64,000 nucleotides of DNA from Bacteroidales bacterium (GTDB lineage Bacteria > Bacteroidota > Bacteroidia > Bacteroidales > UBA4181). A program made the position numbers and the translations under genes. The number at the start of each line of letters is the position of its first letter. The stretch's first letter is position 1. The notes under the pieces are model-generated. The model was not told the DNA's origin. It worked only from the letters and a program-made list of their open reading frames with translations, and made no database searches. The stretch lies in contig JAVBNI010000087.1 of assembly GCA_031551645.1 (NCBI GenBank), forward strand, positions 13,381 through 77,380, given 5' to 3'. Shown here in pieces: positions 636 through 22,341 of this stretch.

Positions 636-864
636 TCATACGAAGTTTGACTTGCACTGTCCGAAGTTCAACTTGCACTGTCCGAAGCTTAACTTGCATT
701 GTTCGAAGTTCAACTTGCACTATCCGAAATTAAACTTGCACTGTCCGAAATTAAACTTGCATTGTCCGAAGCTCAACTTGCACTGTCCGAAGTTCAACTT
801 GCATCGTCCGAAGTTCGACTTGCACCCTTCGAAACTTAGTTTGCATCATCCGAAGCTCAATTAG
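636..864. repeat. Tandem array of ten 21-bp units (consensus ACTTGCACTGTCCGAAGTTCA) plus degenerate flanking partial units
   Basis: Read directly: the units occupy 650-670, 671-691, 692-712, 713-733, 734-754, 755-775, 776-796, 797-817, 818-838 and 839-859. Unit junctions form AAGTT-C-AACTT dyads. Confidence 0.95.
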
Positions 865-1188: not shown

Positions 1189-2463
1189 TTAGTTTTGCGA
1201 AGCCGGAGATTCATTGATCAGTTTCAATGCTTCTTCCATATATACTTCACCGGTCATTTCACCTAATGAGGTTTGGCTGATATATCTATATCTTTCAAAA
1301 CTATTGAAATCCACTTTTGTAAGTATGTATCCAAAAGCATCGTTGGTTAATCCGAAAAGAAACGGTTGGGTGGTTTTCATGTTCCTTTTCATATAAAACC
1401 CGATGTTGGGAAGCGCTTCTCCCGGGATTGTCAGGATTTGAGCTTTACCAACATTCACAAGGTTTAATCTGGTTGAAATCGATTCAAATGTTTTATCAGC
1501 AGTTTTTTCGCCAATGGGAGAATTTTTTAAGACATAACGCATGATTTCCGAATCAACCGGAAACGATATCATCTTTGAAGTACAATAGAGGTCGGGATTG
1601 TCATTGACCGGAGCATCGGCTATAATTCTCAGCGCTTCGTCGGCAAGCAGATTGCCAATTCTGACACACTCGTCCCAATGATTCGCTTCTTTTCCACCCT
1701 CAAGCCGTACATCAGCAGTTACCATGCCGCCTTGTGCACTATTCATAAACAATGCCATTCCTCCCGCTTTGGATTCTATCCTGTCATATAACGGGCCGCA
1801 AAGATCCGGGCTGATCAGTTTCCGCTTCGTCCCGAGAATTTCGGGGTGTGTGGCATAATTAACCAGGGTGGCGATAACTTTGCCTTTATTCTTTCCCGAA
1901 GCCGATATTGCCTGTATGACCCCACAACGCGGATCATACAACTTGTCAGCATAATAGTTATATGCGATTTTACCTTTGGCTTCGCCCACTGCTGTTTTTA
2001 TTGTGGCCGGTTCCAGTTTCGAAATTGCTTCGTTTACAGCTTCGGCGACCATTTTCGTACACCAGTCCAAATATTCCAAGTCTGCGCCAATTTTCCCATC
2101 TTTATCAGGAAAAGCATATGCATCTGGAGCGCTGTGCGTATGAGTTACACCAATCATGACATTTTGCGGAGGAATGCCCTTGATTAAATTTCTTGACCGG
2201 TCTCCCAGGTATGACGGCCAACCAATATTATCAATTCCGACAATTGCTACTCGTGTACCTCCTTTTTCCAATACAAGAGCCCTAACGAAAAGGTCTCCTT
2301 TTTTGCCTTCAGGAGGGGAAGGAGTTCCCATACCTCCGGAAATCGGGATAAGTTTGGAAGGAGTGATGACACGATATGCCGCACCTGCTTTAAAAGTCTG
2401 GGCATCGAGCCTGGTTATCAACAAGGAGAGAAATAAAATAGCTACAAGTCTTATTGTTTTCAT
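1189..2463 (-). CDS. Neutral/alkaline non-lysosomal ceramidase-like protein (divergent fifth paralog), secreted
   Basis: ATG start with an N-terminal signal peptide (MKTIRLVAILFLSLLITRLDAQ). It carries a GVTHTHSAPD motif and the upstream G...DLFVRALVL pattern typical of the neutral ceramidase N-terminal domain. Confidence 0.65.
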   Translation of the reverse strand: MKTIRLVAILFLSLLITRLDAQTFKAGAAYRVITPSKLIPISGGMGTPSPPEGKKGDLFVRALVLEKGGTRVAIVGIDNIGWPSYLGDRSRNLIKGIPPQNVMIGVTHTHSAPDAYAFPDKDGKIGADLEYLDWCTKMVAEAVNEAISKLEPATIKTAVGEAKGKIAYNYYADKLYDPRCGVIQAISASGKNKGKVIATLVNYATHPEILGTKRKLISPDLCGPLYDRIESKAGGMALFMNSAQGGMVTADVRLEGGKEANHWDECVRIGNLLADEALRIIADAPVNDNPDLYCTSKMISFPVDSEIMRYVLKNSPIGEKTADKTFESISTRLNLVNVGKAQILTIPGEALPNIGFYMKRNMKTTQPFLFGLTNDAFGYILTKVDFNSFERYRYISQTSLGEMTGEVYMEEALKLINESPASQN

Positions 2464-2488: not shown

Positions 2489-3808
2489 TTAGTCTATATA
2501 AATGGGATTTGTATAAATCCATGGAAGATATTTTCCCCGGATTTTCAAATGCATCTCGAGTCTGTATGCGCCTTTTTGAACCGGTTCCTTCCACTCAAAT
2601 TCATATCTGTCGTCCGAAGAGACGTAAATCACTTTCCCATTATGGATCAATTTGAATTGTCCCGGGAAAGGCGACACGGCATTAAGTGAAGCAACATCGC
2701 TTATCTTCAATGAATCGCCTAAAATTCCGGCAACAGAACCGGCGTTGTTCTTTGCATAATAACAAAATCCTCTGGCATCGCCAAGATCCGTAAAAGCGGT
2801 AAAATGATGTCCCCTTTTTAAATGCCTGGTTATTGATGATAAAGTCAACGAATCGGCAAACAAGAAATTTGATACATACTTGAAATTGCATTCATATGTG
2901 TCGATCATCATTTTAAATATCCAACCATTTTCATCCGGTTCGCTCAACAACCACTTGTTCCAAATGGTTACCTGCTTTATACCAATAGGTTTTGCGTTGG
3001 GGCCGTACCACTTGACACGCCCGTCGGGAAGCATTTTGGCCCTGAGATTTATATTTTCATGCGTATCCACTGCCGAAAAACCGACCACTTTCCGGTGTGT
3101 ATTCAACGAATCCCACCTTGCGAGGATAGATGTCTGTTCATCGAATATTTCCCTCATTACCCATGACCGATACTTATTCTTATTGATCAGCGCATTGACA
3201 ATGAACGGAAAATATGACGGTTCGTCCAAAATATCCGTATGTATGTTATATATCTCCATTCCCTGGTAATACGGACTATCCCAGTTATGAGGCTCTTCCG
3301 TGTGGGCATAAAACATCATTCCGCCTTCCCGGATGATATTTTTTGATACGGTATCAATGTTCCTTCCCCAATCGATAATGGTTTCTTTCATAGGCCAGGC
3401 GTCGAAACCCGCTTTTTCCGATCCGGGTTCGATCAATACGCCATCATACAATCCCTTGTATCCTCTTGGAAAAGTATCCAGATTGCCATGAGGATGATCC
3501 GTTAGAAATATAAAATCGATTTGATTTTTCTTGGCTGCGGGAATGATATCATATAGTGTTCCTTCACAATCATGCGACCAGAAACTGTGCATGTGAAGCA
3601 CTCCCCGGTATATGTTATAACCTACAATATTACCCGGCTCTTTCCGTAGTTTCGCTAATTCTTTGACCTGTTTTTCAAATTTGGGATAAGTGACCACATG
3701 CCGCCAAATTGGACGGGCAAATATGATCAGGAATACAACTACCAAGAGTACTAAAACTGAAAGAATCAAATATTTTAACGCTTTCAATATCTTTTTTAAG
3801 ATGTTCAT
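2489..3808 (-). CDS. PHP-domain metal-dependent phosphoesterase with N-terminal membrane anchor
   Basis: HMHSFWSHDCEG and FLTDHPH motifs indicate PHP-type metal ligands. The N-terminus has a hydrophobic helix (LILSVLVLLVVVFLIIF). Confidence 0.6.
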   Translation of the reverse strand: MNILKKILKALKYLILSVLVLLVVVFLIIFARPIWRHVVTYPKFEKQVKELAKLRKEPGNIVGYNIYRGVLHMHSFWSHDCEGTLYDIIPAAKKNQIDFIFLTDHPHGNLDTFPRGYKGLYDGVLIEPGSEKAGFDAWPMKETIIDWGRNIDTVSKNIIREGGMMFYAHTEEPHNWDSPYYQGMEIYNIHTDILDEPSYFPFIVNALINKNKYRSWVMREIFDEQTSILARWDSLNTHRKVVGFSAVDTHENINLRAKMLPDGRVKWYGPNAKPIGIKQVTIWNKWLLSEPDENGWIFKMMIDTYECNFKYVSNFLFADSLTLSSITRHLKRGHHFTAFTDLGDARGFCYYAKNNAGSVAGILGDSLKISDVASLNAVSPFPGQFKLIHNGKVIYVSSDDRYEFEWKEPVQKGAYRLEMHLKIRGKYLPWIYTNPIYID

Positions 3809-3856
3809 AAAATAAAGATCGATGTGTTATTTTAATTTCGTTTTGAAAAAAATATT

Positions 3857-5242
3857 TTAACGGATGACCATATCGGATATGCGCCGCATCATATCAAAAG
3901 TATAATCCCCCATACTGGGGCCAAACCATCCCATGGCTCTTGATTCATACTGATCCCTGTCAAAGTACCTTCCGGGAACGATATATCCCACATAATTGCC
4001 GTTGAAGCTGGTAACGTTGGCTTTAAATCCTTTAGTCCAAAGATAATTTTTAAGCTGGAGTGCATATTCTCCGGAAAAGTCAGCCGGGGTGGTGACCCAC
4101 ACCATATTATTTAACCGGATAGCCTGAAGAATGGAATGATCGGGAATAGGCGACAACTTATTACTCAACGATGGAATTAAAGACCTCTTTTTCAAAATTC
4201 TGAAACTATATTTCGGCAAGTCGAATTTGAGCGTAACAGTAGAAAATACTACTTTGTCTTCCATCGGTGTTCTTGCTATTTGAGCAAGAACGGTATCGGC
4301 CAACGCTTCGCCAAGCGATTGCGGTCTGGCAAAACCTTCTCCCTGGGTAACAGGACTTTGACTTCCTACAGAACCGGCACAGAATATGGCATAGTCGGCA
4401 AACGATTGTTCCATTTTTCTTTGCCAATAACCGGGATAATCGCCACTAAATTCCATATTATCTGCCCCCATTGTTGTTGAATGGGCTGAAAAAGAACCAA
4501 TCACAGCTTTTTTAGCTCCTATCTGTTCCAATACGATATAGCTGAAATCATCGTTCTTGGTTCCCAGATCGCCGATAACACGATTTCTTGTATAAGATGC
4601 TGCCGGAATATTGTCCGACCCAATGGTTGCAGGCTTCAGGTCCTGGATGGCTTTTTTTACCACAGCAACAATTTGCTGCGTAACCCAGTGCTGGACATTT
4701 TCATTCTCCGGCCCTGAAAATTTTGGCCCGACTATTCCTGTCCCCCAACCACCAATACTGGAATGGCTGTGTGTTGCAGAAAACATCAATTGACCCCTGT
4801 TGATTCCGTCCCGATGCAATATATCAACAACAGGATCAATGATATTAGGGGGCAAAACAAGCATATCGACGCCTACAATAACCATTATCTTATCATCTAA
4901 TTTTAAGGCCGCAGCTTTTGCAAAAATGGAATCATGTATTCCTGTGGCGGGCTTTCCATCCCTGGCTCCATATCCGGCCAAAGGAATTTCTTTGAATTTC
5001 CCTTCCCTGGCATTATCTTCCGGGGAATTAAGTCCCGGGGTGATACTTACTTTTGCAAAACCCGCTTCTAAAGGATAAACTACTGTAACAGCGGTTTCCT
5101 TCAAACTATCCAACCGGAGACAACTTTTTTTATAATAATCGGATTCGTAAAAGGAAGTTCTGTCAATTTTACGGGTAGCCGACAACAGTACGGTAAGAAG
5201 TACTGCAATGATGACGCATACAACGATGATAATTTTTTTCAT
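3857..5242 (-). CDS. Neutral ceramidase-like protein, paralog 1 of tandem array (signal-anchor type)
   Basis: Contains the motifs GIHDSIFAKAAAL and FSATHSHSSIGGWG. It aligns along its length with the ORFs at 6428, 9101 and 10648. ATG start at 5242. Confidence 0.7.
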   Translation of the reverse strand: MKKIIIVVCVIIAVLLTVLLSATRKIDRTSFYESDYYKKSCLRLDSLKETAVTVVYPLEAGFAKVSITPGLNSPEDNAREGKFKEIPLAGYGARDGKPATGIHDSIFAKAAALKLDDKIMVIVGVDMLVLPPNIIDPVVDILHRDGINRGQLMFSATHSHSSIGGWGTGIVGPKFSGPENENVQHWVTQQIVAVVKKAIQDLKPATIGSDNIPAASYTRNRVIGDLGTKNDDFSYIVLEQIGAKKAVIGSFSAHSTTMGADNMEFSGDYPGYWQRKMEQSFADYAIFCAGSVGSQSPVTQGEGFARPQSLGEALADTVLAQIARTPMEDKVVFSTVTLKFDLPKYSFRILKKRSLIPSLSNKLSPIPDHSILQAIRLNNMVWVTTPADFSGEYALQLKNYLWTKGFKANVTSFNGNYVGYIVPGRYFDRDQYESRAMGWFGPSMGDYTFDMMRRISDMVIR

Positions 5243-5279
5243 TTTTCAAATATAATATCATTAAGAGATAATTGATTGA

Positions 5280-5315
5280 TTGTGTAAATCAATATGTTCT
5301 ATAAGATTTACACAA
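5280..5315. other. 11-bp perfect inverted repeat (TTGTGTAAATC / GATTTACACAA) with 14-nt loop, upstream of ceramidase-like gene
   Basis: Read directly. It sits 38-73 nt upstream of the ATG at 5242 and downstream of the esterase stop at 5451. No T-run follows it on either strand. Confidence 0.6.
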
Positions 5316-5450
5316 AATAATTTTACTCCTAAAAATAATACAAAACATATCGCAAAACATACAAGCCGGTTTAAAAATATCGACAGGTAATAATGTGCTA
5401 ATTATAAAAATGTTAACCAACTTGTCTTACGTCTGTTTTAGTGTCGTTTA

Positions 5451-6362
5451 TTATTTCGATTTCAAGTGTTTGTCGAAAAAATCTTCAATCGGCTTCATGT
5501 TCTCTGGTTGCTCAAATTCGGGGCCACCATGCGTTCCTCCTTTGACGGTAATGAACAGGCAATTGGCTCCCGCTTCCCTCAGAGCCTTATCGTACATTAC
5601 GCTCTGTTCATATGGAACAAGCTCATCCTCATCGCCGTGCAGAATAATAATGGGCACCACATCTTTTTTTACATAGCTCATGGGGCTGGCCTTCGTCCAA
5701 GCCTCTTTCGGATTTGGATGATTGGGATCGATCAGACGTCTTCTCGAGGAGGATTTCTGTTCGTTGGTTGCTTCCGAGCTGGCCGAAGCATAGACGGAAA
5801 GATCAACCACTCCGAAAAGATCGCATACCGCTTGAATATCACTTGATTGATCGAGATACTCTCCCACTTCAAATTCCTTCATTCCTGCGGTCGACCCCAT
5901 CAAGGCGACAAGGTGGCCTCCAGCCGAAGCCCCCCAAACTCCAATGTGTTTTTTGTCAATCTTATACTGTTCCGCGTGGGCGCGAAGCCAGCGAACAGCG
6001 GATTTACAATCTTGTAACTGAGCTGGAAAATAGGCTGCATCAAGAAGGCGATAATTGGTAATAACGACGACATAACCTTTAGGAACCAACCAGTTGGACA
6101 GAAAGACATATTCGTCCTTATTCCCTCTCACCCAACCACCTCCATGTACGGCAAAGATCGTCGGGTATGGTTTTTTTGCCTTTTCATAATCTTTGGGAAG
6201 GTAGATATCCAACTGCTGACGATATCCCCCGCCCGTCACGTAAGGAATGTTTTTGAGGACAATGAGATCCGGACTCGGTTCAACTTTTCTCTGTCCCCAA
6301 GCAAATGAGGAAAATAGTCCAAGAAACAAGGACACAACGATCAAATTTTTGTATGAAATCAT
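5451..6362 (-). CDS. Secreted alpha/beta-hydrolase esterase (HGGGW oxyanion motif, GASAGGH nucleophile elbow)
   Basis: Signal peptide MISYKNLIVVSLFLGLFSSFAWGQ, followed by HGGGW, GxSxG (GASAGG) and HGDEDELVP motifs. It is a close paralog of 8113..9003. Confidence 0.75.
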   Translation of the reverse strand: MISYKNLIVVSLFLGLFSSFAWGQRKVEPSPDLIVLKNIPYVTGGGYRQQLDIYLPKDYEKAKKPYPTIFAVHGGGWVRGNKDEYVFLSNWLVPKGYVVVITNYRLLDAAYFPAQLQDCKSAVRWLRAHAEQYKIDKKHIGVWGASAGGHLVALMGSTAGMKEFEVGEYLDQSSDIQAVCDLFGVVDLSVYASASSEATNEQKSSSRRRLIDPNHPNPKEAWTKASPMSYVKKDVVPIIILHGDEDELVPYEQSVMYDKALREAGANCLFITVKGGTHGGPEFEQPENMKPIEDFFDKHLKSK

Positions 6363-6401
6363 AAGTAATTTTGTTACATCATATTAATTTAACGCACATT
6401 A

Positions 6402-6429
6402 TCAATTGTCAATTGTCCATTGTCAATTT
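6402..6429. repeat. 7-bp-periodic tract TCAATTG x4 (one variant) overlapping the stop codon of the gene at 6428..7828
   Basis: Read directly: TCAATTG TCAATTG TCCATTG TCAATTT. Confidence 0.85.
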
Positions 6430-7828
6430 AACGAATAACAATATCCGCCATCTGGCGAATAAGGTCGGCAGAATAATCACCCATATTCGGGCCAAGCCAA
6501 CCCATGTCTTTCGATTCGTACATGTTGAGGAAAAAGTATTTGCTCGGGATAATATATCCGGCATAACTACCGTTAAACCCGGTTACATTCGCATTGAAAC
6601 CTTTCGGAAAAAGATAGTTTTTTGTCTGAAGCGCTATTTCTCCCGAAAAATCTCCGGGCGCAGATATCCAAACCATATTATTTAATCTCATCGCCTGAAG
6701 TACCGGATATTTCGGACCGGGTATCATTTTGTGGCTGAGAGCAGGTACAAGCGACCTCCTGTTCATGAGGCGGATGTTATATTCAGGCAAATTCAATTTC
6801 ATGGTAATGGCCGAAAATATTACACTGTCTTTCATCGGAGTTGTTGAAGCGCATTTCAATACGGTATCGGCCAGGGCTTCTCCATATATTTGGATTCGCT
6901 CGAACCCTTCTCCACCAATGATTACAGGACTTTGACTTCCCACTCCTCCGGCACAGAAAAAAGCATAATCAGCAAAAGTACTTTCCATTTTTCTTGCCCA
7001 GTAACCGGGATATTCGCCGCTTACTTCCATATTCTTCGCACTCATGATGGTGGGATGAGCCGAGTAGGAACCGATAATAGCCTTCTTACCTCCGATTTGT
7101 TCCAGGATAATATAGCTAAAATCGTCATTCTTGGTACCCAATTCGCCTATAACGCGGTTCCTGGTAAATGATGCCGCAGGTACATTACCGGAACCAATCA
7201 ATGCCGGCTTTAAATCCTTTATAGCTGTTCGTACAGATAGAGAAATCTGAGAAGCCAGCCAGCTCACCATGTTTTCATTCGGTTCTCCTGCGGTTTTTGA
7301 ACCCATAAGCCCCATGCCCCATCCGCCTAAGCTGGAGTGGCTATGAGTTGCGGAAAACATCAATTGATCCCTGCTTATTCCCGCTTTACGCAGCATGGAT
7401 ACAACCGTGTCTGCAATATTGTGGGGCATAATCACCAGGTCGGCTCCCAATATAACCATCAGCCGGCCAGCAACTTTAATGGCTGCAGCGCTGACAAAAA
7501 TCGAATCGTGTATTCCGGTTACAAATTTACCTTGCCTTGCGCTATAACCACCTAAAGTAACGTTTTTAAATTTTCCTTCGGCTATATTGTCTTCGGAATG
7601 GTTAAGGCTCGGTGTGATACTTATTTTGGCGAAACCTGCTTCGAGCGATTGATAGACCGAAGCGTTGTTCTTTCGAAGACTATCCAACTGAACGAGACTT
7701 TTTTTATAATAATCGCACTCGTAGTAGGAAGTTCTGTCAATTTTGCTGGTACCCAAAAACAATGCGGTGAGAGCTACAATGAGAAGTACCGCAATGATGA
7801 CGCATAGGGTGATGATAAATTTTTTCAT
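6428..7828 (-). CDS. Neutral ceramidase-like protein, paralog 2 (signal-anchor type)
   Basis: Contains FSATHSHSSLGGWG and GIHDSIFVSAAAI and aligns with the other paralogs. ATG start at 7828. Confidence 0.7.
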   Translation of the reverse strand: MKKFIITLCVIIAVLLIVALTALFLGTSKIDRTSYYECDYYKKSLVQLDSLRKNNASVYQSLEAGFAKISITPSLNHSEDNIAEGKFKNVTLGGYSARQGKFVTGIHDSIFVSAAAIKVAGRLMVILGADLVIMPHNIADTVVSMLRKAGISRDQLMFSATHSHSSLGGWGMGLMGSKTAGEPNENMVSWLASQISLSVRTAIKDLKPALIGSGNVPAASFTRNRVIGELGTKNDDFSYIILEQIGGKKAIIGSYSAHPTIMSAKNMEVSGEYPGYWARKMESTFADYAFFCAGGVGSQSPVIIGGEGFERIQIYGEALADTVLKCASTTPMKDSVIFSAITMKLNLPEYNIRLMNRRSLVPALSHKMIPGPKYPVLQAMRLNNMVWISAPGDFSGEIALQTKNYLFPKGFNANVTGFNGSYAGYIIPSKYFFLNMYESKDMGWLGPNMGDYSADLIRQMADIVIR

Positions 7829-7890
7829 TTTTCAAATACTAAGATATGTTCTAAAAATAACATATAATGTTCTTTAGTTAAATTGGTTTT

Positions 7891-7990
7891 TGTGCCTTCG
7901 GGCCTTAGTGGCCGATTTTCATGCCACGAAGGCTCGAAGACACAAAGCAGGAACTCAAAAACGTAACAATTTGTTTTTAGATCGTTCCTA
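7891..7990. repeat. Intergenic element copy A of about 100 bp: imperfect 22-bp-stem hairpin (7891-7912 / 7923-7944) plus conserved tail
   Basis: Near-identical to 10506-10606. The stem has 3 mismatches in this copy. Confidence 0.85.
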
Positions 7991-8047
7991 AGTTAATTGA
8001 AAAGCAACACCATGAAAATGCATAATTAATTAAAAATATACGTGTTA

Positions 8048-8102
8048 CAATTCTCAATTCTCAATTCTCAATTCTCAATTCTCAATTCTCAATTCTCAAT
8101 TT
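8048..8102. repeat. Perfect heptanucleotide microsatellite (TTCTCAA)7
   Basis: Read directly: seven exact units at 8051-8099 with partial units on each flank. It lies 11 nt from the esterase stop at 8113. Confidence 0.95.
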
Positions 8103-8112
8103 AATACTGCTT

Positions 8113-9003
8113 TTATTTCAAGTATTTTGCAAAAAAAGCTTCAATCGGCTTCAGTACTTGTGGCTGCATATAATCAGGGCCGCCGTGTTTCCCTCCTTTG
8201 ACGGTAATGAACTGACAATCGACACCCGCTTCTTTCAGAGCTTTGTCATAAATCACGCTCTGTTTGTATGGGACAAGTTCATCATCGTCACCATGCACGA
8301 TAATGGTAGGCGCCATATCTTTTTTCACGTAGGTCATGGGACTGGCTTTCATCCAGGCATCTTTCTGATTCGGGTGTTCAGGATCGATCAAACGTTTTCT
8401 CGATGCTCTAAGCGTTTCCGGATTGAGCGAAGCAATGGCGGAGAAGTCGGTCGGCCCGAAAAGATCGCACACCACTTGAATATCGCTCGATTGGTCAAGG
8501 TATTCACCCGTGTCGAATTCCTTCATTCCTGCGGTCGATCCCATCAAAGCGACGAGGTGAGCTCCGGCCGAAGCTCCCCAAGTCCCAATGTGTTTTTTGT
8601 CGATCTTATACTTTTCCGCATTGGCACGAAGCCAGCGAACGGCGGATTTACAATCTTGTAACTGAGCCGGGAAGTAGGCTACGTCGAGAAGACGATAATT
8701 AGTGATTGCGACGATATAACCTTCGGGAACCAGCCAGTTGGCCAGGAAAACGTATTCTTCCTTGCTCCCTTTTGTCCAACTACCCCCGTGTACAACAAGT
8801 ATTGTCGGGTACGGCTTTTCCGCTTTTTCATAACCTTTGGGAAGATAGAGATCTAACTGCTGGCGGTATTCCCCGCCTGTCACATAAGGAACGTTTTTGA
8901 GGACAACGAGATCCGGGTCCGGATCGACCTTCTGCCCCCAAACAAATGAAGAAAATAGTCCAAGAAACAAGGACACAACGATTAATTTTTTGTACGAAAT
9001 CAT
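8113..9003 (-). CDS. Secreted alpha/beta-hydrolase esterase, paralog of 5451..6362
   Basis: Carries the same motifs (HGGSW, GASAGAH, HGDDDELVP). The ORF track begins at a GTG at 9054. The ATG at 9003 gives MISYKKLIVVSLFLGLF..., matching the paralog N-terminus, so I prefer it. Confidence 0.75.
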   Translation of the reverse strand: MISYKKLIVVSLFLGLFSSFVWGQKVDPDPDLVVLKNVPYVTGGEYRQQLDLYLPKGYEKAEKPYPTILVVHGGSWTKGSKEEYVFLANWLVPEGYIVAITNYRLLDVAYFPAQLQDCKSAVRWLRANAEKYKIDKKHIGTWGASAGAHLVALMGSTAGMKEFDTGEYLDQSSDIQVVCDLFGPTDFSAIASLNPETLRASRKRLIDPEHPNQKDAWMKASPMTYVKKDMAPTIIVHGDDDELVPYKQSVIYDKALKEAGVDCQFITVKGGKHGGPDYMQPQVLKPIEAFFAKYLK

Positions 9004-9100
9004 ATTAATAACATTAAAGATTATAGCTTTTACATATTTGATGATAAATGACACCTGCCCGTCCAGTCAGAACAATATCATGTCATTTTTAATTCTCAAT

Positions 9101-10426
9101 TTAACGAATGACAATATCGGCTATCTGACGAATAAGGTCAGTGGTATAATCGCCCATATTCGGGCCAAACCAACCCATGGTTTTCGTCTCATAATGATCC
9201 CTGAAATAGTACTTACTTGGGACAATATACCCCAGATAACCACCATTAAAACCGGTTACATTCGCGTTAAATCCTTTCCGGTAAAGTCCGTTTTTTATTT
9301 GAAGCGCTATCTCTCCTGAAAAATCCGCAGGGGTGGAAATCCATACCATATCATTCAATCTAAACGCCTGAAGCGTTTGACCTTCAGGAGCAGGCGGTTG
9401 GCGACCAGCGAATAATCCATCTACGAGTTCTTTTGACATATTGAATTCAGGTGTATTCAATTTCATGGTAATGGCCGAAAAAACAACCTTATCTTTCATT
9501 GGAGTTGTTAAAGCGGATTTCAGAACGATATCACCTAAAGCTTCCCCCATTTTCCGGGCGCGCTCGAAACCTTCTGCGTCAACGCCTGCAGGCCCTTGAC
9601 TTCCCATGGCTCCGGCACAAAAGATGGCGTAATTGGCAAAGTTTTTTTCCATTTTCCTCTCCCAATAACCAGGGTAATCACCGCTTATTTCCAAATTTTT
9701 CGCACTCATGACTGTGGCATGGGCAGAGAAAGAACCAATAATGGCCTTCTTTCCTCCAATTTGTTGCAAAATAATATAGCTGAAATCGTCATTCTTGGTG
9801 CCTAATTCGTCAATAACGCGGTTCCTGACATACGATGCCGCAGACACATTTCCTGAACCGATCAATGCCGGTTTTAAATCCTTTATAGCTGATCTTATAG
9901 CTAAAGAAAACCGGGAAGCTAACCATCGATCAGTAATTTTGCCCGGATCTAAACTGGAGTGAGAATGTGTTGCGGTAAACATCAACTGATCTCTGCTTAT
10001 TCCGTCTTCACGCAACATGGATACAATCTCGTCTGTAAGTGTTTGGAACATTCTCAGATAATCGGCTCCCACTAAAATCATTAGACGGTCGGCAACTTTA
10101 ATAGCTGCAACCCTGACAAAAATTGAGTCATGTATTCCGGTTGCGAAATTTGTCCCTCTCGCACTATAACCGCCTAATCCGACGTTTTTAAATTTTCCTT
10201 CGGCAACATTGTCTTTTGGATAATGAAGGCCCGGAGTGATGCTCACTTTGGAAAAACCGGCTTCGAGCGAATGATCGATCGACGTGTTGTTCTTCCGCAG
10301 ACTGTCCAATTGAACGATGCTTTTTTTGTAATAATCGCAATCGTAGTAAGAAACTCCGACAACCTGGCCGGTGGCCGACAACGAAAAACCAAGGAATGCT
10401 GCAATTATGATGACAAATTTCCCCAT
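9101..10426 (-). CDS. Neutral ceramidase-like protein, paralog 3 (cleavable-signal type, short post-HSHSS loop)
   Basis: Contains FTATHSHSSLDPGK. The ORF track start at 10453 is TTG. The ATG at 10426 gives MGKFVIIIAAFLGFSLSATGQ, a signal peptide. Confidence 0.7.
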   Translation of the reverse strand: MGKFVIIIAAFLGFSLSATGQVVGVSYYDCDYYKKSIVQLDSLRKNNTSIDHSLEAGFSKVSITPGLHYPKDNVAEGKFKNVGLGGYSARGTNFATGIHDSIFVRVAAIKVADRLMILVGADYLRMFQTLTDEIVSMLREDGISRDQLMFTATHSHSSLDPGKITDRWLASRFSLAIRSAIKDLKPALIGSGNVSAASYVRNRVIDELGTKNDDFSYIILQQIGGKKAIIGSFSAHATVMSAKNLEISGDYPGYWERKMEKNFANYAIFCAGAMGSQGPAGVDAEGFERARKMGEALGDIVLKSALTTPMKDKVVFSAITMKLNTPEFNMSKELVDGLFAGRQPPAPEGQTLQAFRLNDMVWISTPADFSGEIALQIKNGLYRKGFNANVTGFNGGYLGYIVPSKYYFRDHYETKTMGWFGPNMGDYTTDLIRQIADIVIR

Positions 10427-10505
10427 TTTAAAAAAATTTAAGATTGAGTACAAAATATGATTTTTACGTTATTTTCAAAGACTTTGTGCTCCTTCAAGTG
10501 GTCTT

Positions 10506-10606
10506 TGTGTCTTCGAGCCTTAGTGGCCGGTTTTCATGCCACGAAGGCTCGAAGACACAAAGCAGAAACTCAAAACCGTAACAATTTGTTTTTAGGTCGT
10601 TCCTTA
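10506..10606. repeat. Intergenic element copy B of about 100 bp: 22-bp-stem hairpin (10506-10527 / 10538-10559, 1 mismatch) plus conserved tail
   Basis: Near-identical to 7891-7990. It lies upstream of the gene starting at 10426. Confidence 0.85.
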
Positions 10607-10647
10607 ACTGTGAAAGGAATATACATTCTCCATTGTCAATTCTCCAT

Positions 10648-11967
10648 TTAACGAATGATAATATCAGCCATCTGACGAATCACGTCGGCAGTATAATCAC
10701 CCATATTCTGGCCAAACCAACTCATGCTTTTCGATTCGTACTGATCAAGGTAATAGTATTTACTCGGAACAATATACCCCAGATAGCAACCATTAAAACT
10801 GGTTACATTCGCGTTAAATCCTTTCGGATAAAGATAGTTTTTAGTTTGAAGCGCTATCTCTCCTGAAAAATCTGCAGGCGTAGAAATCCATACCATATCA
10901 TTTAATCTCAGCGCCTGAAGTACTTGGCCTTCCATAGCAGGCAACGCCCTTTGGCTGCTGGAAGAAGTTCGAGTGGTATATTCAGGTATATTAAACCTCA
11001 TGGTGATGGCCGAATAAACAACCTTATCCTTCATTTGCGTTGTTGCAGCGCTTTTTTGGACGACATCTGCCAAGGCTTTTCCTAAATTTTGCGCCCGAAC
11101 GAAATCTTCTCCTTCAACGCCTGTAGGACTTTGGCTTCCCACTCCTCCGGCACAGAAAATAGCGTAGTTGGCAAAAGTACTTTCCATTTCTCTTTGCCAA
11201 TAGCCGGGATAATCGCCGCTTACTTCCATGTTTCTCGCACTCAAGACTGTGGCATGGGCAGAGAAGGAGCCAATAATAGCTTTCTTACCTTTGTTCTGTT
11301 TCAAAATAATATAGCTGAAATCGTCATTCTTGGTCCCTCGTTCGCCAATAACGCGGTTCCTGGTATATGATGCCGCAGGTATATTTCCTGAACCGATCAA
11401 CGCCGGCTTCAAATCCTTTATAGCCGATCTTACAGCTAAAGAAATCCGGGAAGCCAGCCAATTCAACATTGCATCTCCCCCCGGGCTCAAACTGGAATGA
11501 CTATGAGTTGCGGAAAACATCAACTGATCCCTACTTATTCCATCCTTTTGCAGCATGGATAAAACCGCGTCTGTAAGATTTTGGGGTATGATGATCAAAT
11601 CGGCTCCAATGATAACCATTAGTTTGTCTGCAACTTTAATCGCCGCCGTTTTGACAAAGATTGAGTCGTGTATTCCAGTTGCGGAATGTACTCCTCTTGC
11701 ACTATAGCCTCCTAAACCGACGCTTTTAAATTGTCCTTTGACATCATTGTCTTCGGAATAATGAAGACCCGGAGTGATGCTTACTTTAGCGAAACCGGCT
11801 TCGAGCGAATGTTGTATTGAACTGCTGTTTGTACGCAGACTGTCCAATTGGGCGATACTTTTTTTATAATAATCGCAATCGTAGTAGGAAATCCCGACAA
11901 CCTGACCGGTAGCCGGCAACGACAAACCAAGAAATACCACAATTACGATAAGGATAATTTTCTTCAT
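10648..11967 (-). CDS. Neutral ceramidase-like protein, paralog 4 (cleavable-signal type, short post-HSHSS loop)
   Basis: Contains FSATHSHSSLSPGG. The ORF track start at 12000 is TTG. The ATG at 11967 gives MKKIILIVIVVFLGLSLPATGQ. A heptad tract (10625-10647) abuts the stop codon. Confidence 0.7.
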   Translation of the reverse strand: MKKIILIVIVVFLGLSLPATGQVVGISYYDCDYYKKSIAQLDSLRTNSSSIQHSLEAGFAKVSITPGLHYSEDNDVKGQFKSVGLGGYSARGVHSATGIHDSIFVKTAAIKVADKLMVIIGADLIIIPQNLTDAVLSMLQKDGISRDQLMFSATHSHSSLSPGGDAMLNWLASRISLAVRSAIKDLKPALIGSGNIPAASYTRNRVIGERGTKNDDFSYIILKQNKGKKAIIGSFSAHATVLSARNMEVSGDYPGYWQREMESTFANYAIFCAGGVGSQSPTGVEGEDFVRAQNLGKALADVVQKSAATTQMKDKVVYSAITMRFNIPEYTTRTSSSSQRALPAMEGQVLQALRLNDMVWISTPADFSGEIALQTKNYLYPKGFNANVTSFNGCYLGYIVPSKYYYLDQYESKSMSWFGQNMGDYTADVIRQMADIIIR

Positions 11968-12089
11968 TTGAATATTTTTTTTGAAAAACCTAAAAATCAA
12001 GATAAAAAGAAAAAGTTTAAGAGAGGTAAATTTTCATCTTTGCACTTCCTCCCGTGAAATCATCGGGATTGGTAATATTGGGCGAAATG

Positions 12090-13175
12090 TCATTTTTTGA
12101 TTGTCAATTCATATTCCATTCCCTGATTGGGTTTTACGTAAAGATTTTCCACCACAAAACGAAGAACGACAGGTGTGTCTTTTTTCTTTATCTTGATTCC
12201 TGTCCTATGAATGGATTTAGGCGACAGCAAAAGCTCGCGTTCGCATTCCAACGACGGGTCATCTTTCTTCTTCAGCAGGAAAGGGATCTGCGAATTATTG
12301 CGTATCATGAAACTCACTCCATCAGGGCCTTCTTTGGCAGCAACAATCTCAACCGATGCTTCGAACAAAGCTTTGAGATATTCTTCACGACCGATCAGGA
12401 TATCACCATGATACACAACTGTCCGACCGGCCAGCAACGCTTCGCGGATGGATTCTACGGATCGTTCCTTGGCAAACACCAGCGTCATCGGGCGGTGTTC
12501 CCCTTTACCGAAGTCATAATAAAGACCTGTCGGGAGATGTGAATCGGAGTTCCCAATCATGGTCAGATTCTTTTCCAGACACCATTGATGTCCTTCGGGA
12601 AAATAGTCGCGGGTGTTGACAATTTCTATACCTTGTAACAATCCCTGTTGCAACATCCGGGTATGTTCGTCAAACCACCGCGTCACGTCCGGCTGATGCC
12701 GCCACCAACCAGGATGATTCCAGAAAATGAAACCGCCTTGTTGTTTTGCCTCTTTACAGGCATCCTTGAAGTCGGGTGTTTCCAACTTGTTGGCATCTTT
12801 AATAAAAATAGCGTTAATGTGACCGGGAGGCATGCCCCGCGAAATCTCGACCCCTTTTATCAGCAACAAGTTGAGCATATCAGCATATCCTTTGGCTTTT
12901 TTGTATGCAGTATTATGATCGCCCACTACTTCCTTGTCTTTTTTCGGTTCCCCGTATATGTGGTCCGAAAGCGCAATAGCGTCCAAACCCTCACTAATGG
13001 CTTCCAATACCCGCACATCGGGTGTTACGCTACCGTCGGAATAGATGGTATGCATATGAAAATCGCACTTCAAAGTCTTGTATCCCGGAATGTCGGGAAT
13101 TTCGACTTTGGTATACCGCACCTGAGCCGATAATGGTATAGCGAGACTTAGCAAGAAAAGAAAAACTGTTCTCAT
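12090..13175 (-). CDS. Secreted PHP-domain phosphoesterase/phosphodiesterase
   Basis: The motif CDFHMHTIYSDGSVTP...ALSDH is the classic PHP N-terminal metal-binding pattern. Signal peptide MRTVFLFLLSLAIPLSAQ. Confidence 0.65.
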   Translation of the reverse strand: MRTVFLFLLSLAIPLSAQVRYTKVEIPDIPGYKTLKCDFHMHTIYSDGSVTPDVRVLEAISEGLDAIALSDHIYGEPKKDKEVVGDHNTAYKKAKGYADMLNLLLIKGVEISRGMPPGHINAIFIKDANKLETPDFKDACKEAKQQGGFIFWNHPGWWRHQPDVTRWFDEHTRMLQQGLLQGIEIVNTRDYFPEGHQWCLEKNLTMIGNSDSHLPTGLYYDFGKGEHRPMTLVFAKERSVESIREALLAGRTVVYHGDILIGREEYLKALFEASVEIVAAKEGPDGVSFMIRNNSQIPFLLKKKDDPSLECERELLLSPKSIHRTGIKIKKKDTPVVLRFVVENLYVKPNQGMEYELTIKK

Positions 13176-14104
13176 TGTTTTTTTCTTTGCAATTCGAGTA
13201 AAGGACGATATCCAATAACGATGATTTTCTCATTCTCAATCAATTTTTTCAATTGAGGACTGCAAAAAAACTCCAACTCTTTGATCCGTTTGGGCGCCGT
13301 GCTTGAAAGCACACGGATCTCCTCGCTTTCGGAGCTTGCATGTACGTATATTTCTGTTACACCCGGTTTTATGTTCTTAATATAATTGGTCCAGAATTCG
13401 ACCACATTGTCATTTTTATAATCACTAAATTCTTCGCTGATAAAATAATCAGGGAAGACGAGACCCTTTTCTTCACATTCTTTCCGTATATTTGGAAATC
13501 CTCTTCTTTCCATTGATGCTTGTGACGCCATCCGCAACGGCAAATTAAATTCTTCGGCAAGCTGGACATATATCTTCAAGTATTCCAAGTCGTTCTGGTA
13601 GGTTCCCATATGCGAATCAATATGTGTTATGGGTATACCGCTTGCGAGCGCCTTTTGAATCTGGGCGCGTCCTTCCAGCAGAGCTTGCTGGGGATTCGAT
13701 GCTGCGTACACATCACGCACACCTTTCCACATATATCCCTGCCGGTCATACAATCCCGGAACCTCTGTCCATGAAAGCAAGGGTGTCCAGCGGTGTTTAG
13801 TCCACTCCGCCGTGAGGGTCAGGTGCACCCCAAAATCTTTTTCGGGATGTTGCACTGCATAAGTTGCTATTTCACTATACCACGAACAAGGCGTCATGAT
13901 AGTGGCCGTACTGATAAAGCCCTGCTCCATCCCTTTGATGGTTGCAGTATTAGCGGCATGACACATTCCGCAATCGTCATTATTTACAATCAGTATTCTG
14001 TCTGTTTTTTTATATCCTAATCTTTCGGCCAAAGTTTTCGTTTGTGCCGAAACGGTAGCCCCACTGACTACCATAGCAATTGCTAACAAAAAAGTATTTT
14101 TCAT
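13172..14104 (-). CDS. YdjC/ChbG/HpnK-family deacetylase, secreted
   Basis: Contains the family motifs NNDDCGMCHAANTATI, GVHLTL and HIDSHMG. Its stop overlaps the next gene's start as ATGA at 13172-13175. Confidence 0.65.
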   Translation of the reverse strand: MKNTFLLAIAMVVSGATVSAQTKTLAERLGYKKTDRILIVNNDDCGMCHAANTATIKGMEQGFISTATIMTPCSWYSEIATYAVQHPEKDFGVHLTLTAEWTKHRWTPLLSWTEVPGLYDRQGYMWKGVRDVYAASNPQQALLEGRAQIQKALASGIPITHIDSHMGTYQNDLEYLKIYVQLAEEFNLPLRMASQASMERRGFPNIRKECEEKGLVFPDYFISEEFSDYKNDNVVEFWTNYIKNIKPGVTEIYVHASSESEEIRVLSSTAPKRIKELEFFCSPQLKKLIENEKIIVIGYRPLLELQRKKQ

Positions 14105-14290
14105 TTGTGTAAAATTATTTTCTAAGGTTTATATTTCACTGACTTCGCTGAGCTTGCAGACTCAATTCATTACGATGGATGAACTACAATATTTATGGAT
14201 ATTTCATTTATTCATAAAATACATTGAAAGGATTTCTTGGGATTGTTTCAAAAGTCTTTTAAAAAAATCAAATTGTTTATTATCTGAATT

Positions 14291-15649
14291 TTAATTGTTT
14301 TTTACCAATAACTTTTTGTCGGTGGTAACAAACATACGGGTACTTTCGGTATAATCATGGCCGGAAGGACTTTGGTAGATCAAGTCAACAAAAAAGGCTT
14401 TGTATCCGGATTTTGGATAAGGAATATCAACAACTATTTCACCCTTGCCGGCGGCATTCAAATCCTGTCCCGACCAGGGTTCATCTCTGAAATCCTGATC
14501 TTCGGACTCTGCCCCCCAGAGTTCAGCGCCTTTTAAAAGTGCAGGAGTTGTTTTTACTTTCAACATGATAACACCATCTTGTTCTTTTATGGAATAATCA
14601 CAAATTGGATAATTCCCTCCAGTAATGGTTGTTTCAAAAAAAGCGCCGGTAGAAGTAAACACCTTTTTTCCATCACCCAAGTTGTGTACGGCATTGGGGA
14701 CATAACAGATATAATTCTTTCCCGGAATATCATCGATATAGTTTTTTATTGCATCAACAGGCCAATACGGATCATTTGTCGCCATAAATATCATTTTAGG
14801 CATAGTCAATGACTCCCTGTACGAATATGGATCAACCATTGTCACAAGGTCCTGGCCGCCCTTACTTGTGATCTGCTGGGTAATTCCCAGATCAACATAA
14901 TCCTGAATTTCTACGCTGTAATCTTTCCAGACCTCAATCTGATAATCAACACTGACAGGCATGTTGAGCACGTCAATTACTTTGGGGGCAATGGCTTTTA
15001 CACGTTTGTCATTAGCACCTGTCAACCAAGTAGTCCAGCCGCGTTTTGATTCTCCCGAAACCACAAATTCTTTTATATCCCACTTCCGTTCTTTATCAGC
15101 AAACTGCTGAATCACATCCATTCCCCTGATGGCGCTTTTAGTCATGGGAAAAAGTAAAGGCCAGGTCATATCCCCATCTTTCAAATAATTATGGAATGTG
15201 TAGGAGATTAAAGCATCTTCGGTCAGGTCGTTATAGAGGGGTTGATTAGGCACCTGCCAGAGCACGGCTGTAACCGCCATACTGTTTTTCGCAATCTCAC
15301 ACAGCGGGATTACAAATTTATCATTCCACGAATGCAGATTGGGTTTACCATCCTTAACACTACCCCCGGCAATCAGCATAAGCGCATCAGGGTATTTTAA
15401 CATGTCGGGTACTATAATTACCATTTCATGTACCCAATCAAACTCACGCCAGTGTTGCGATGTAAAGAGCACCCTGTACAAAGTAACACCATCCTGCTGG
15501 ATCTTATCATTCAATTCCCATTTGAAGGAATTGTCGGAATTATTGATATATGCCTGTAGCGCCGTAGCCGGAGTAACTGGGTTTTTAGTTTCGGCACAAC
15601 CGGCAAAAAAAGCACCAATGATGGAAATAAGAAATAGTAACTTCTTCAT
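14291..15649 (-). CDS. PhoPQ-activated pathogenicity-related (PqaA)-like alpha/beta-hydrolase lipoprotein, copy 1
   Basis: Lipobox FFAGC. The N-terminal pattern ALQAYINNSDNSFKW...FTSQHW...IAGGS and the SGESKRGWTTW motif match my recollection of the PhoPQ_related family. Confidence 0.6.
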   Translation of the reverse strand: MKKLLFLISIIGAFFAGCAETKNPVTPATALQAYINNSDNSFKWELNDKIQQDGVTLYRVLFTSQHWREFDWVHEMVIIVPDMLKYPDALMLIAGGSVKDGKPNLHSWNDKFVIPLCEIAKNSMAVTAVLWQVPNQPLYNDLTEDALISYTFHNYLKDGDMTWPLLFPMTKSAIRGMDVIQQFADKERKWDIKEFVVSGESKRGWTTWLTGANDKRVKAIAPKVIDVLNMPVSVDYQIEVWKDYSVEIQDYVDLGITQQITSKGGQDLVTMVDPYSYRESLTMPKMIFMATNDPYWPVDAIKNYIDDIPGKNYICYVPNAVHNLGDGKKVFTSTGAFFETTITGGNYPICDYSIKEQDGVIMLKVKTTPALLKGAELWGAESEDQDFRDEPWSGQDLNAAGKGEIVVDIPYPKSGYKAFFVDLIYQSPSGHDYTESTRMFVTTDKKLLVKNN

Positions 15650-15663
15650 ATTGAACTGTCATT

Positions 15664-15698
15664 AGAAAAAGCAGGAGATACTCTAAAGTATCTCCTGC
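15664..15698 (-). terminator. Hairpin plus T-tract between susD-like and PqaA-like genes (attenuator or 3' stabiliser), copy 1
   Basis: A 12-bp perfect stem (GCAGGAGATACT / AGTATCTCCTGC) with a 4-nt loop, followed on the minus strand by TTTTTCT. It ends 14 nt before the ATG at 15649. Confidence 0.6.
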
Positions 15699-15717
15699 CT
15701 AACATTTCTAAAATAAA

Positions 15718-17466
15718 TTACCAAGGCTTCCCTGTTTCTTGCAAAAGCCACATTCTTGACCATGCACTGTTCTTTGTATTCCCAGGCTCAGAAAATGGTT
15801 GCGGAGTTGGTTCGAGCCTATCAATAGCAACTTCTAAATTATCCCTGTTATAGCTTAATTCTTTAGTGCCATAATAAAAACGTATGGGAGGTACCGGGTT
15901 TTTTGTTCTTGTCCCCTCTGCTAAAACGGGAAAACCTGTTCTTCTCCAGTCAAACCATGCTTCACATGCAGCAGTCCAGCTTGCTATCCATTTCTGCTCT
16001 ATGATTTGCTCTAATGTCTCATTGTAGGCAATGTCAGGATGGGTAATAAAATCGTTATATCCGCTGCTTACACCCCATGTTTCTAAAGAAACTCTGATAG
16101 CTGCGTTATAATGTTCTTTGGCATCCCCGCCCCATCCGTTATAAGCTATTTCGGCAAGGCAGAATTGCATTTCGGCTGCCGACAACATTCTGGCCTTTAG
16201 CAGAGGATCGGCGGCTTTCTCATACAGCGAGCCGAGTTGTGATGCATGAGGATTGTACCTGCCTTGTCCGCCAGGCATATTCAGGTTATATACATATAAT
16301 GTGCCATCCGTCCATGCCGGCGGGTAACCGATATAATCAGTATCATAATTGAGCTTGTGCTTCTGTATGCCACCGTTAGTTCTTTCCCATCTGGTACTGA
16401 CACTGTCACCAATCACGCGTACTCCATCAATAATCTGATCAAATTCAACATCTTTGGTTAAATCAAGTTTTAACGGCGTCTCAACTTTGTTTGCCCACAC
16501 TCCTAATCTGGGATCCTTCGCCCGTGTGGGATCATTATGAGTCGGCCACATTTTATCGATCAATGTCTGACACATTTTTCGTCTGAGATATTCGCTGTCT
16601 ATGGTTTTACTAAACACAGTTGTGGTACGCCATGAATTGCCGGTAGTGGCTCCGATGCATGCATAAGCGGCATCATCGGCAGGAGTCAGAATCAGAGGAT
16701 ATTGTGCGGGATCGCCCAATATTTCTTTGATTCCTGTTTCGGCAATATCCCGTTCTTTGGTCGAAATTCTCAAATAATACCTTAATCTCAGCGAATTGGC
16801 AAATTTTCTCCATTTAGCAACATCACCGTTATAAAGAGGATCCTGATCGGGATTGATGATATATGCGCTCTGCGGTTGGGAGAAAAGCGTGTTCGCTTCC
16901 TTAAGCAACTCAATGACACCAATGTATATATCCCTTTGTTTGTCGTACCGCGGCTTCATAATCCCATCGTCAGCGCAAATTCCTTCAAGATAAGGCGCCG
17001 CACTGTATTTGCTCCAAAAAGGCGCATCAGCCGGCGAATCGCTCCAAAAAGGCGCATCGCCCCAAAAGTCGGCAATAGCTCCAAAATTATATGCCAAAAA
17101 TACTTTTGCTGCACCTTTGTAAAAGTCGTTACCTGCTTCATCTGCCTTCCGCAACATCTCTTTCGCATTTCTAAGGTTCTCGTAGAAGCCGTCCCATTCA
17201 TTGGCCGTCCAGTCATAAGCATTTACTCCTCCTGCCCAGCCATCCTGTTGGATATGCTGCATCACTCCGGAAATATCTCCTAATCCTCCATAACCGTTCA
17301 TCGTATTTCCGGTGCCGGTGATCACGGTGCCCAACAAAAGGCTTACGTCCGCTTGATTTGGATCGACGCCGTTGGGGTTGATGTTCATCTCGTCAAGGTC
17401 TTTACATGAAAAAAGCGAAAGACCAATCAAAAAACATGATACTATAATTGAATATTTTGTTTTCAT
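15718..17466 (-). CDS. SusD/RagB-family outer-membrane lipoprotein, copy 1
   Basis: Lipobox SLFSC, followed by KDLDEMNINPNG. The C-terminal ...NSAWSRMWLLQETGKPW and the overall length are typical. It lies immediately downstream of the SusC-like gene. Confidence 0.85.
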   Translation of the reverse strand: MKTKYSIIVSCFLIGLSLFSCKDLDEMNINPNGVDPNQADVSLLLGTVITGTGNTMNGYGGLGDISGVMQHIQQDGWAGGVNAYDWTANEWDGFYENLRNAKEMLRKADEAGNDFYKGAAKVFLAYNFGAIADFWGDAPFWSDSPADAPFWSKYSAAPYLEGICADDGIMKPRYDKQRDIYIGVIELLKEANTLFSQPQSAYIINPDQDPLYNGDVAKWRKFANSLRLRYYLRISTKERDIAETGIKEILGDPAQYPLILTPADDAAYACIGATTGNSWRTTTVFSKTIDSEYLRRKMCQTLIDKMWPTHNDPTRAKDPRLGVWANKVETPLKLDLTKDVEFDQIIDGVRVIGDSVSTRWERTNGGIQKHKLNYDTDYIGYPPAWTDGTLYVYNLNMPGGQGRYNPHASQLGSLYEKAADPLLKARMLSAAEMQFCLAEIAYNGWGGDAKEHYNAAIRVSLETWGVSSGYNDFITHPDIAYNETLEQIIEQKWIASWTAACEAWFDWRRTGFPVLAEGTRTKNPVPPIRFYYGTKELSYNRDNLEVAIDRLEPTPQPFSEPGNTKNSAWSRMWLLQETGKPW

Positions 17467-17478
17467 ATTACGATTACG

Positions 17479-20838: not shown

Positions 20839-20863
20839 ATTCTTATTAAGTTAATATTATTAT

Positions 20864-21796: not shown

Positions 21797-21828
21797 ATTG
21801 ACTTATAGTTTAAAATTACTGATTTTTG

Positions 21829-21848
21829 AAATGTAAACGTTTACATTT
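21829..21848. promoter_or_regulatory. LacI/GalR-type operator palindrome, proximal site, copy 1
   Basis: AAATGTAAACGTTTACATTT is a 20-bp perfect palindrome. It lies 32 nt from the ATG at 21796 and 10 nt upstream (gene orientation) of a TAATTTTA box (rc of 21811-21818). Confidence 0.6.
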
Positions 21849-22325: not shown

Positions 22326-22341
22326 GCTTAAACGTTTAAGC
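22326..22341. promoter_or_regulatory. LacI/GalR-type operator palindrome, distal site, copy 1
   Basis: GCTTAAACGTTTAAGC is a 16-bp perfect palindrome with the same AAACGTTT core. Confidence 0.5.

Follow-up and report, generated by a model that had tools for sequence, protein, structure and literature searches.

The closest described relatives of the proteins considered here are the neutral ceramidases, for which structures of the Pseudomonas enzyme PaCD (2zws/2zxc, the latter with C2-ceramide bound) and of human ASAH2 (4wgk) are available. In PaCD, zinc is coordinated by H97, H204, Y448, and E411, while H99, R160, and Y460 are catalytic. Two further points of reference are the BD-FAE esterases (PF20434; bifunctional feruloyl/acetyl-xylan esterase) and the SusC/SusD-type polysaccharide utilization loci (PULs) of Bacteroidota. 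Here, we analyze a stretch of 64,000 nucleotides from a Bacteroidales bacterium (contig JAVBNI010000087.1, positions 13,381 to 77,380; hereafter, the window), in which positions 3857–11967 of the minus strand hold six open reading frames (ORFs) in the order cer4, cer3, est2, cer2, est1, and cer1: four short ceramidase-like genes and two esterase genes (Table 1). The four cer proteins fall into class A (cer1 and cer2) and class B (cer3 and cer4), which differ jointly in their N-terminal signal, in the loop that follows the H-x-H pair, and in a second segment. On balance, we consider it probable that the amidase step of a conserved SusC/SusD locus, together with an esterase, underwent a lineage-specific tandem expansion to give the array, and that class B is a specialized soluble form.

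All four array proteins match PF04734 above its Pfam gathering cut-off of 32.1 bits (cer1 52.0, cer2 49.3, cer3 40.7, and cer4 39.6), although these matches cover only profile positions ∼8–260 of 509. When a profile of five paralogs was compared with the PDB, the only entries matched were the neutral ceramidases 2zws/2zxc and 4wgk. Structure prediction leads to the same enzymes: the AlphaFold models of cer2 (predicted local distance difference test [pLDDT] 88.3, predicted TM-score [pTM] 0.90) and cer3 (pLDDT 82.7, pTM 0.86) both have 2zws as their best Foldseek match (E = 4e-27 and 5e-26, respectively, each with a query TM-score [TMq] of 0.70), and their matches are confined to 2zws, 2zxc, and 4wgk (E ≤ 1e-21, TMq 0.68–0.70). 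A HMMER alignment places Pseudomonas H97, H99, H204, Y448, and Y460 at cer2 H162, H164, H258, Y425, and Y437. Pseudomonas R160, which HMMER put in an adjacent insertion, was assigned to cer2 R225 by the common RNR motif. The equivalents of these six cer2 residues are present in cer1–4 and invariant in the 118 relatives that were compared; the (Q/L)SP motif likewise retains its Ser. The remaining zinc ligand of PaCD, E411, aligns with an Asp (cer2 D393, in PADFSGE) that is conserved in more than 90% of the relatives; the position is Glu in P0012 and in the distant paralog cer0 (PGE). Asp here is a conservative substitution.

The cer proteins nevertheless differ from neutral ceramidases in several respects. 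They are only 13–19% identical to them and ∼200 residues shorter, ending ∼30 residues beyond the last catalytic Tyr, and their target-normalized TM-scores reach only ∼0.5. The C-terminal Ig-like domain (∼150–200 residues) is missing, with no Pfam match past PF04734 in any of cer1–4. Against the NCBIfam equivalog for neutral ceramidase (NF041649), the cer proteins score 20–22 bits where the cut-off is 1200. Because of this shorter length, the lack of the Ig-like domain, and the equivalog scores, we regard cer1–4 as putative N-acyl amidases that share the ceramidase fold and depend on Zn, and do not classify them as ceramidases. Literature searches found no characterized member of this short-form subfamily.

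The first of the class differences lies at the N-terminus. The longest apolar N-terminal run spans 20 residues in cer1 and 25 in cer2, neither of which has a cleavage motif, and in the cer2 model the hydrophobic N-terminus forms a helix (residues 2–26). The corresponding runs in cer3 and cer4 are 17 and 18 residues long and are followed by SATG↓Q and PATG↓Q, respectively. Signal peptidase I substrates of Bacteroidota typically have Gln at the +1 position (the "Q-rule"; PMC5837995, PMC10653852), and the cer3 and cer4 endings thus fit cleavage by this peptidase before Gln. Alternative upstream TTG or GTG starts are possible for cer3, cer4, and est2, but homology favors the ATG starts. Taken together, cer1 and cer2 likely carry uncleaved signal anchors and cer3 and cer4 cleavable type-I signal peptides, with different localization as the likely consequence.

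The second difference lies directly beside the catalytic site. The loop begins two residues past the second His of the H-x-H pair, whose members are the counterparts of the zinc ligand His97 and the catalytic His99. Measured from HSHSS to the next conserved Trp, it comprises 23 residues in both class A proteins but 9 in cer3 and 10 in cer4, a deletion of 14 and 13 residues, respectively. In the cer2 model, this excursion is a strand (165–167) followed by a helix (173–180), predicted with pLDDT near 90, whereas in the cer3 model the histidine pair leads almost straight into the next long helix. The deletion removes W170, G171, G173, G176, and G181 (cer2 numbering), each of which is conserved in at least 90% of the relatives. 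The GG-aromatic start of the loop is found in class A and is common to the Pseudomonas (HTHSGPGGF) and human (HTHSGPAGY) enzymes; class B has lost this GGW motif and, with it, an excursion present in both solved ceramidases. Thirdly, the segment preceding the LQAxR block measures 29 residues in cer1 and cer2, 26 in cer3, and 22 in cer4; in the cer3 model, this second variable segment (residues 329–346) has pLDDT <50. The sequence-only reading of this DNA had described the array in these terms, with all six genes at their present coordinates and strand, anchor-like N-termini in cer1 and cer2, shorter signal peptides ending SATGQ and PATGQ in cer3 and cer4, a gap of ∼14 residues after HSHSS, and a shorter segment before the LQA block, and each of these descriptions agrees with our measurements.

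To place the two classes in order, we turned to the relatives. Of the 118, 115 share one loop length. The exceptions are cer3, cer4, and P0013, a metagenomic protein that lacks two loop residues and the Trp and retains a loop of 22 residues. The same three sequences are the only ones among the 118 with a small-x-small↓Q motif, and cer3, used as the query against 5.8 billion proteins, retrieved no additional loop-deleted member. A maximum-likelihood tree places all four paralogs within one 19-sequence clade (support 100/100), in which cer1 is sister to all other members and cer2 pairs with P0002 (∼80% identical; 78–81% by alignment). Cer3, cer4, and P0013 form a clade (100/97) nested among anchor-bearing, full-loop sequences. 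Approximately unbiased (AU) tests reject both a single clade of the four window genes (p = 1.6e-14) and a clade of cer1 with cer2 (p = 3.5e-5). The nesting in the tree, the AU tests, and the loop lengths of the relatives together indicate that class A is ancestral and paraphyletic and that class B is derived. Within class B, the tree groups cer4 with P0013 (94/85), which, given the 22-residue loop of P0013, would imply two independent loop deletions; sisterhood of cer3 and cer4 is not rejected (AU p = 0.31). The tree thus suggests two deletion events, and the AU test allows one.

The paralogs are also old. Nei-Gojobori estimates give a synonymous divergence (dS) of 0.63 with omega of 0.28 for cer3 versus cer4, dS of 0.76–0.96 with omega of 0.22–0.25 for cer2 versus either class B gene, and dS >2 with omega of 0.11–0.13 for every pair containing cer1; for cer2 and its ortholog P0002, dS is 1.33 and omega 0.08. 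By these estimates, the cer copies are old and under purifying selection. Sliding-window nucleotide identity revealed no recent gene-conversion tracts among cer2, cer3, and cer4, the maximum being ∼88–90% near the 3′ end. We also observed that dS among cer2, cer3, and cer4 within the genome (0.63–0.96) is below that between cer2 and P0002, the closer ortholog at the protein level, which could reflect shared codon bias or an old partial homogenization. Similar pairs are found in other organisms: a 13-kb metagenomic contig carries SusC-SusD-P0013-P0002-PHP-cer0, with class B features in P0013 only, and a JGI contig carries P0011 followed by P0019, a second pairing of an A-type gene with a member of the clade that contains class B. 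Old duplicates kept in more than one organism argue against pure redundancy, in agreement with the earlier proposal that the copies are not simply redundant.

The setting of the array is conserved well beyond this genome. For comparison, we assembled 80 foreign loci from named genomes (Prolixibacteraceae, Sphingobacteriales, Cytophagales, and Chitinophagales). The amidase gene is single-copy in all 80, and in all 80 its best match in the window is cer1, which holds the ancestral position beside PHP1. PHP1 directly follows cer in 59 of the 80 loci and is itself followed by a cer0 ortholog (67–80% identical) in 58, and the full canonical order PKD-SusC-SusD-PqaA-cer-PHP1-cer0 occurs in ∼40. Cultured bacteria with the canonical locus and a single cer copy include Maribellus luteus XSD2, Draconibacterium aestuarii Z1-6, and Gaoshiqia hydrogeniformans Z1-71. 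Esterases ∼30% identical to est1 and est2 are present in the same locus type of other genomes, and related loci also carry BNR, GDPD, and Gfo/Idh/MocA genes. Within a sample of 201 Bacteroidales genomes, the subfamily is found in four, with more than one copy only in the genome studied here; any PF04734 gene at all is found in 10 of the 201, and this genome has 12 ceramidase-fold ORFs. In the array itself, cer1–4 share 57–73% pairwise protein identity and est1 and est2 share 77%. Their homology and the period of 2.57–2.67 kb between successive cer/est units still support tandem duplication as the origin of these genes.

As in Bacteroidota PULs, the locus contains SusC/SusD pairs with a leading lipoprotein and same-strand hydrolases bearing lipoprotein, periplasmic, or inner-membrane signals, and tandem duplication of the module and of enzymes is seen in both. 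It differs in that its 29 kb include no glycoside hydrolase or lyase: Pfam detects no glycoside hydrolase (GH) or polysaccharide lyase (PL) domain in any gene of 1189–30149. Its enzymes are instead amidases, esterases, PHP metallohydrolases, a PqaA alpha/beta hydrolase, and a YdjC deacetylase. The esterases est1 and est2 match the full BD-FAE domain (212.5 and 210 bits; profile positions 1–214 of 215), keep the GASAG motif of the Ser nucleophile, and show D and H motifs in the alignment, but they neighbor amidases rather than xylanases. Because PqaA, BD-FAE, PHP, and YdjC proteins are partners in the locus, and BNR, GDPD, and Gfo/Idh/MocA genes occur in related loci, the gene content points to a substrate that contains sugar, carries O- and N-linked acyl groups, and is phosphorylated, for which a lipid A-like and a sphingolipid-derived identity are both possible. 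Literature searches on this locus type and on PqaA function returned nothing relevant.

In the expansion that we favor, the most likely reaction of cer1–4 would be removal of an amide-linked acyl chain from a glycoconjugate or lipid head group that is imported, acylated, and probably also phosphorylated. The ancestral uncleaved anchor would be retained in cer1 and cer2 and would hold both enzymes at the periplasmic face of the inner membrane. The ancestor of cer3 and cer4 would have been a duplicate in which this anchor gave way to a type-I signal peptide whose cleavage exposes Gln, so that the enzyme became soluble in the periplasm. Along this lineage, the strand-plus-helix excursion two residues past the H-x-H pair would first have degraded and then been excised, and the second segment would have been remodeled. 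Excision of a flap beside the catalytic histidines may have altered access to the pocket, in which case acylated substrate partitioned into the membrane would be processed by class A and soluble fragments by class B. The signal features make different localization of the classes likely, and a changed geometry of substrate access is plausible. Mammalian neutral ceramidase also occurs as a type II membrane-anchored protein and the Pseudomonas enzyme is secreted, so that the split between anchored and soluble forms recurs in the superfamily. Paralogs elsewhere in the same genome follow a similar pattern: three ceramidase-fold proteins with signal peptides (one on contig C179 and two on C169) have naturally short loops after the H-x-H pair, while the membrane-anchored subfamilies, cer1/cer2 and the proteins of C197 and C85, both have long loops containing Trp and Gly. 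The loop may thus help to take substrate from the membrane surface, although few proteins were compared and the pattern has exceptions.

Several observations weigh against this interpretation. In cer0, a soluble paralog, the loop is long, such that loop length is not strictly tied to anchoring. Class B evolves faster, as seen in the omega of 0.28 for cer3/cer4 compared with 0.08 for cer2/P0002, and the poorly predicted second segment of the cer3 model is also compatible with relaxed constraint. In addition, localization was assigned from the length of hydrophobic runs, from whether a cleavage motif is present, and from helices in AlphaFold models.

As it stands, the array is a solid example of gene-family expansion in which changes in targeting signal and in the surroundings of the active site are correlated, and not a new kind of system. 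Its value lies in the family to which it belongs: ceramidase-fold proteins of the short form are common across environmental Bacteroidota and none has an assigned substrate. Here, one operon-like block brings together four versions that diverged naturally, two with the loop and a predicted anchor and two with a secretion signal and no loop, and their side-by-side comparison would be a direct route both to the substrate of the family and to the role of the loop beside the catalytic histidines. A more far-reaching version would hold that class B proteins are functional soluble amidases derived from an anchored ancestor by excision of a flap conserved from Pseudomonas to human, and that the locus is the first SusC/SusD system dedicated to removing phosphates and fatty acids in amide or ester linkage from the head group of an imported glycolipid, whether lipid A-like or sphingolipid-derived. 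We think this version improbable; if true, it would make the array a natural experiment on how the ceramidase fold gates lipid versus soluble substrates.

Of the alternatives, the one that survives best, though we judge it somewhat unlikely, is that the cer proteins are true ceramidases within a sphingolipid-scavenging locus, acting on dietary or microbial lipids such as ceramides with phospho-head groups or glycosyl-inositol-phosphoceramides, in which the paralogs would differ in the ceramide species that they prefer. Neutral ceramidase indeed has this fold and this catalytic site, the PHP genes within the locus are phosphoesterase-like, and the GDPD and Gfo/Idh/MocA genes of related loci would also suit such a role. 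Set against this are an identity of only ∼18% to characterized ceramidases, equivalog scores of ∼21 bits, and the missing C-terminal domain, while the esterases, YdjC, and BNR-type genes fit an O-/N-acylated sugar (for example, a lipid A-like molecule) at least equally well. Moreover, SusC/SusD systems usually import hydrophilic oligomers.

Another possibility is that loop loss cripples catalysis and that class B is relaxed, decaying, or non-catalytic, with cer3 and cer4 persisting as binding proteins or as pseudogenes-to-be. The deletion of highly conserved loop residues, the absence of any other loop-deleted member from the 5.8 billion proteins searched, the higher omega of class B, and the low confidence of the second cer3 segment all speak for this account. 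Yet both reading frames are intact, the zinc-site and catalytic residues are all invariant, and omega has stayed at or below 0.28 over a dS of ∼0.6. A class B ortholog, P0013, has also been kept in another organism, and other ceramidase-fold subfamilies are naturally short-looped at the same position, which renders decay unlikely. Simple dosage amplification, in which more of one enzyme serves a rate-limiting step and the sequence differences are neutral, would suit the tandem same-strand genes with their regular cer-est period, the duplicated SusC/SusD module, and the 12 ceramidase-fold ORFs of a genome whose order mostly has none, but it is very unlikely given that the copies are old (dS 0.6 to >2, amino-acid identity 57–73%), show no recent gene-conversion tracts, are rejected as a within-genome clade, and differ in concentrated and correlated rather than scattered fashion.

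Table 1. Positions of the array genes, their variable sites, and neighboring features, numbered from the first nucleotide of the window (arrow, predicted cleavage point).
Feature	Position	Strand	Description
cer0	1189–2463	-	424 aa, distant ceramidase-fold paralog, type-I signal peptide ending LDA↓Q
PHP1	2489–3808	-	439 aa, PHP-like metallohydrolase, hydrophobic N-terminal anchor
cer1	3857–5242	-	461 aa, class A, adjoins PHP1, putative signal anchor residues 4–23
cer1 sites	4688–4756; 4757–4771	-	loop (23 residues); HSHSS
est1	5451–6362	-	303 aa, BD-FAE-type serine esterase, signal peptide ending AWG↓Q
cer2	6428–7828	-	466 aa, class A, putative signal anchor residues 4–28
cer2 sites	7262–7330; 7331–7345	-	loop (residues 167–189); HSHSS (second segment, residues 348–376)
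Palindromic repeat, copy 1	7878–7989		upstream of cer2; folding -46.2 kcal/mol, z = -6.4
Microsatellite	8048–8101		perfect 7-nt unit, 7.7 copies, just past est2 stop codon
est2	8113–9003	-	296 aa, BD-FAE esterase
cer3	9101–10426	-	441 aa, class B, signal peptide ending SATG↓Q
cer3 sites	9926–9952; 9374–9451	-	loop (9 residues); second segment (26 residues)
Palindromic repeat, copy 2	10493–10604		upstream of cer3; folding -51.4 kcal/mol, z = -7.1
cer4	10648–11967	-	439 aa, class B, signal peptide ending PATG↓Q
cer4 sites	11461–11490; 10921–10986	-	loop (10 residues); second segment (22 residues)
Upstream part of locus	12090–30149	-	PHP/DUF5001 gene, YdjC deacetylase, two PqaA-SusD-SusC-PKD lipoprotein modules (Pfam)
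SusC/SusD pair	15718–20838
SusC/SusD pair	24098–29208

The sequence-only reading had also cited the intergenic elements shared within the array as evidence of segmental duplication, and this argument does not hold. The two copies, both of which fold as long hairpins (copy 2 with arms of 25 nt, 96% complementary), are 92% identical, compared with 74–78% nucleotide identity for the flanking genes, and whole-genome BLAST located further copies on nine other contigs (C239, C56, C294, C11, C206, C282, C4, C261, and C182). We thus rejected the shared element as a trace of segmental duplication: it belongs to a repeat family dispersed over the genome, and the comparison indicates that it entered, or was homogenized, independently. 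The wider proposal of sub-functionalization accordingly loses its intergenic argument and keeps the joint class differences, the position of the loop beside the H-x-H pair, and the retention of old paralogs. Members of the repeat family are ∼110–130 bp long with a 20–25-bp stem, resembling repetitive extragenic palindromic (REP) elements or miniature inverted-repeat transposable elements (MITEs). Upstream of cer2 and cer3, the repeats could act as attenuators or mRNA stabilizers within an operon. An Rfam scan of positions 1–32000 gave no RNA family, and a sigma-70 promoter and terminator scan was uninformative, the genome being that of a member of the Bacteroidota.

Other repeats accompany the locus. 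Besides the perfect microsatellite listed in Table 1, degenerate heptad copies (ATTGAGA/ATTGACA on the coding strand) lie past the stop codons of cer2 (6398–6428), cer3, and cer4. Approximately ten head-to-tail 21-bp repeats (85% matches) occupy window positions 641–860, within the 634-bp gap between the end of a PorP/SprF-like gene (554) and the convergent stop codon of cer0 (1189).

Among the neighboring proteins, cer0, which closes the conserved cer-PHP1-cer0 trio, is 24% identical to cer1, contains an HTHS motif, and scores 22.6 bits against PF04734, below the cut-off. PHP1 has a weak PHP match and a match to the CehA/McbA metallohydrolase domain, and no sequence relative of it was found in the PDB. 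The PHP/DUF5001 protein is phosphoesterase-like and matches PDB entry 3e38 (E = 5e-105). The eight ceramidase-fold ORFs that lie outside the window are distributed over contigs C187, C197, C179, C85, C233, C169 (two), and C258 of the same genome. A further contig, C50, holds a second SusC-SusD locus (3084–19953 of the extracted region L011) with two Big_2 proteins, four PqaA paralogs, and two YdjC genes; its PHP/DUF5001 gene is 97.5% identical to the window copy (12090–13175), and an AMP-binding (acyl-CoA-ligase-like) gene adjoins. In Gaoshiqia hydrogeniformans Z1-71 (L088), a fusion of BNR_2 (sialidase-like) and YdjC (33–1985) lies directly upstream of a canonical PKD-SusC-SusD-PqaA-cer-PHP1-cer0 locus, downstream of which BD-FAE, ceramidase-like, DUF3748, Gfo/Idh/MocA, and DUF6807 genes are arranged in convergent orientation.

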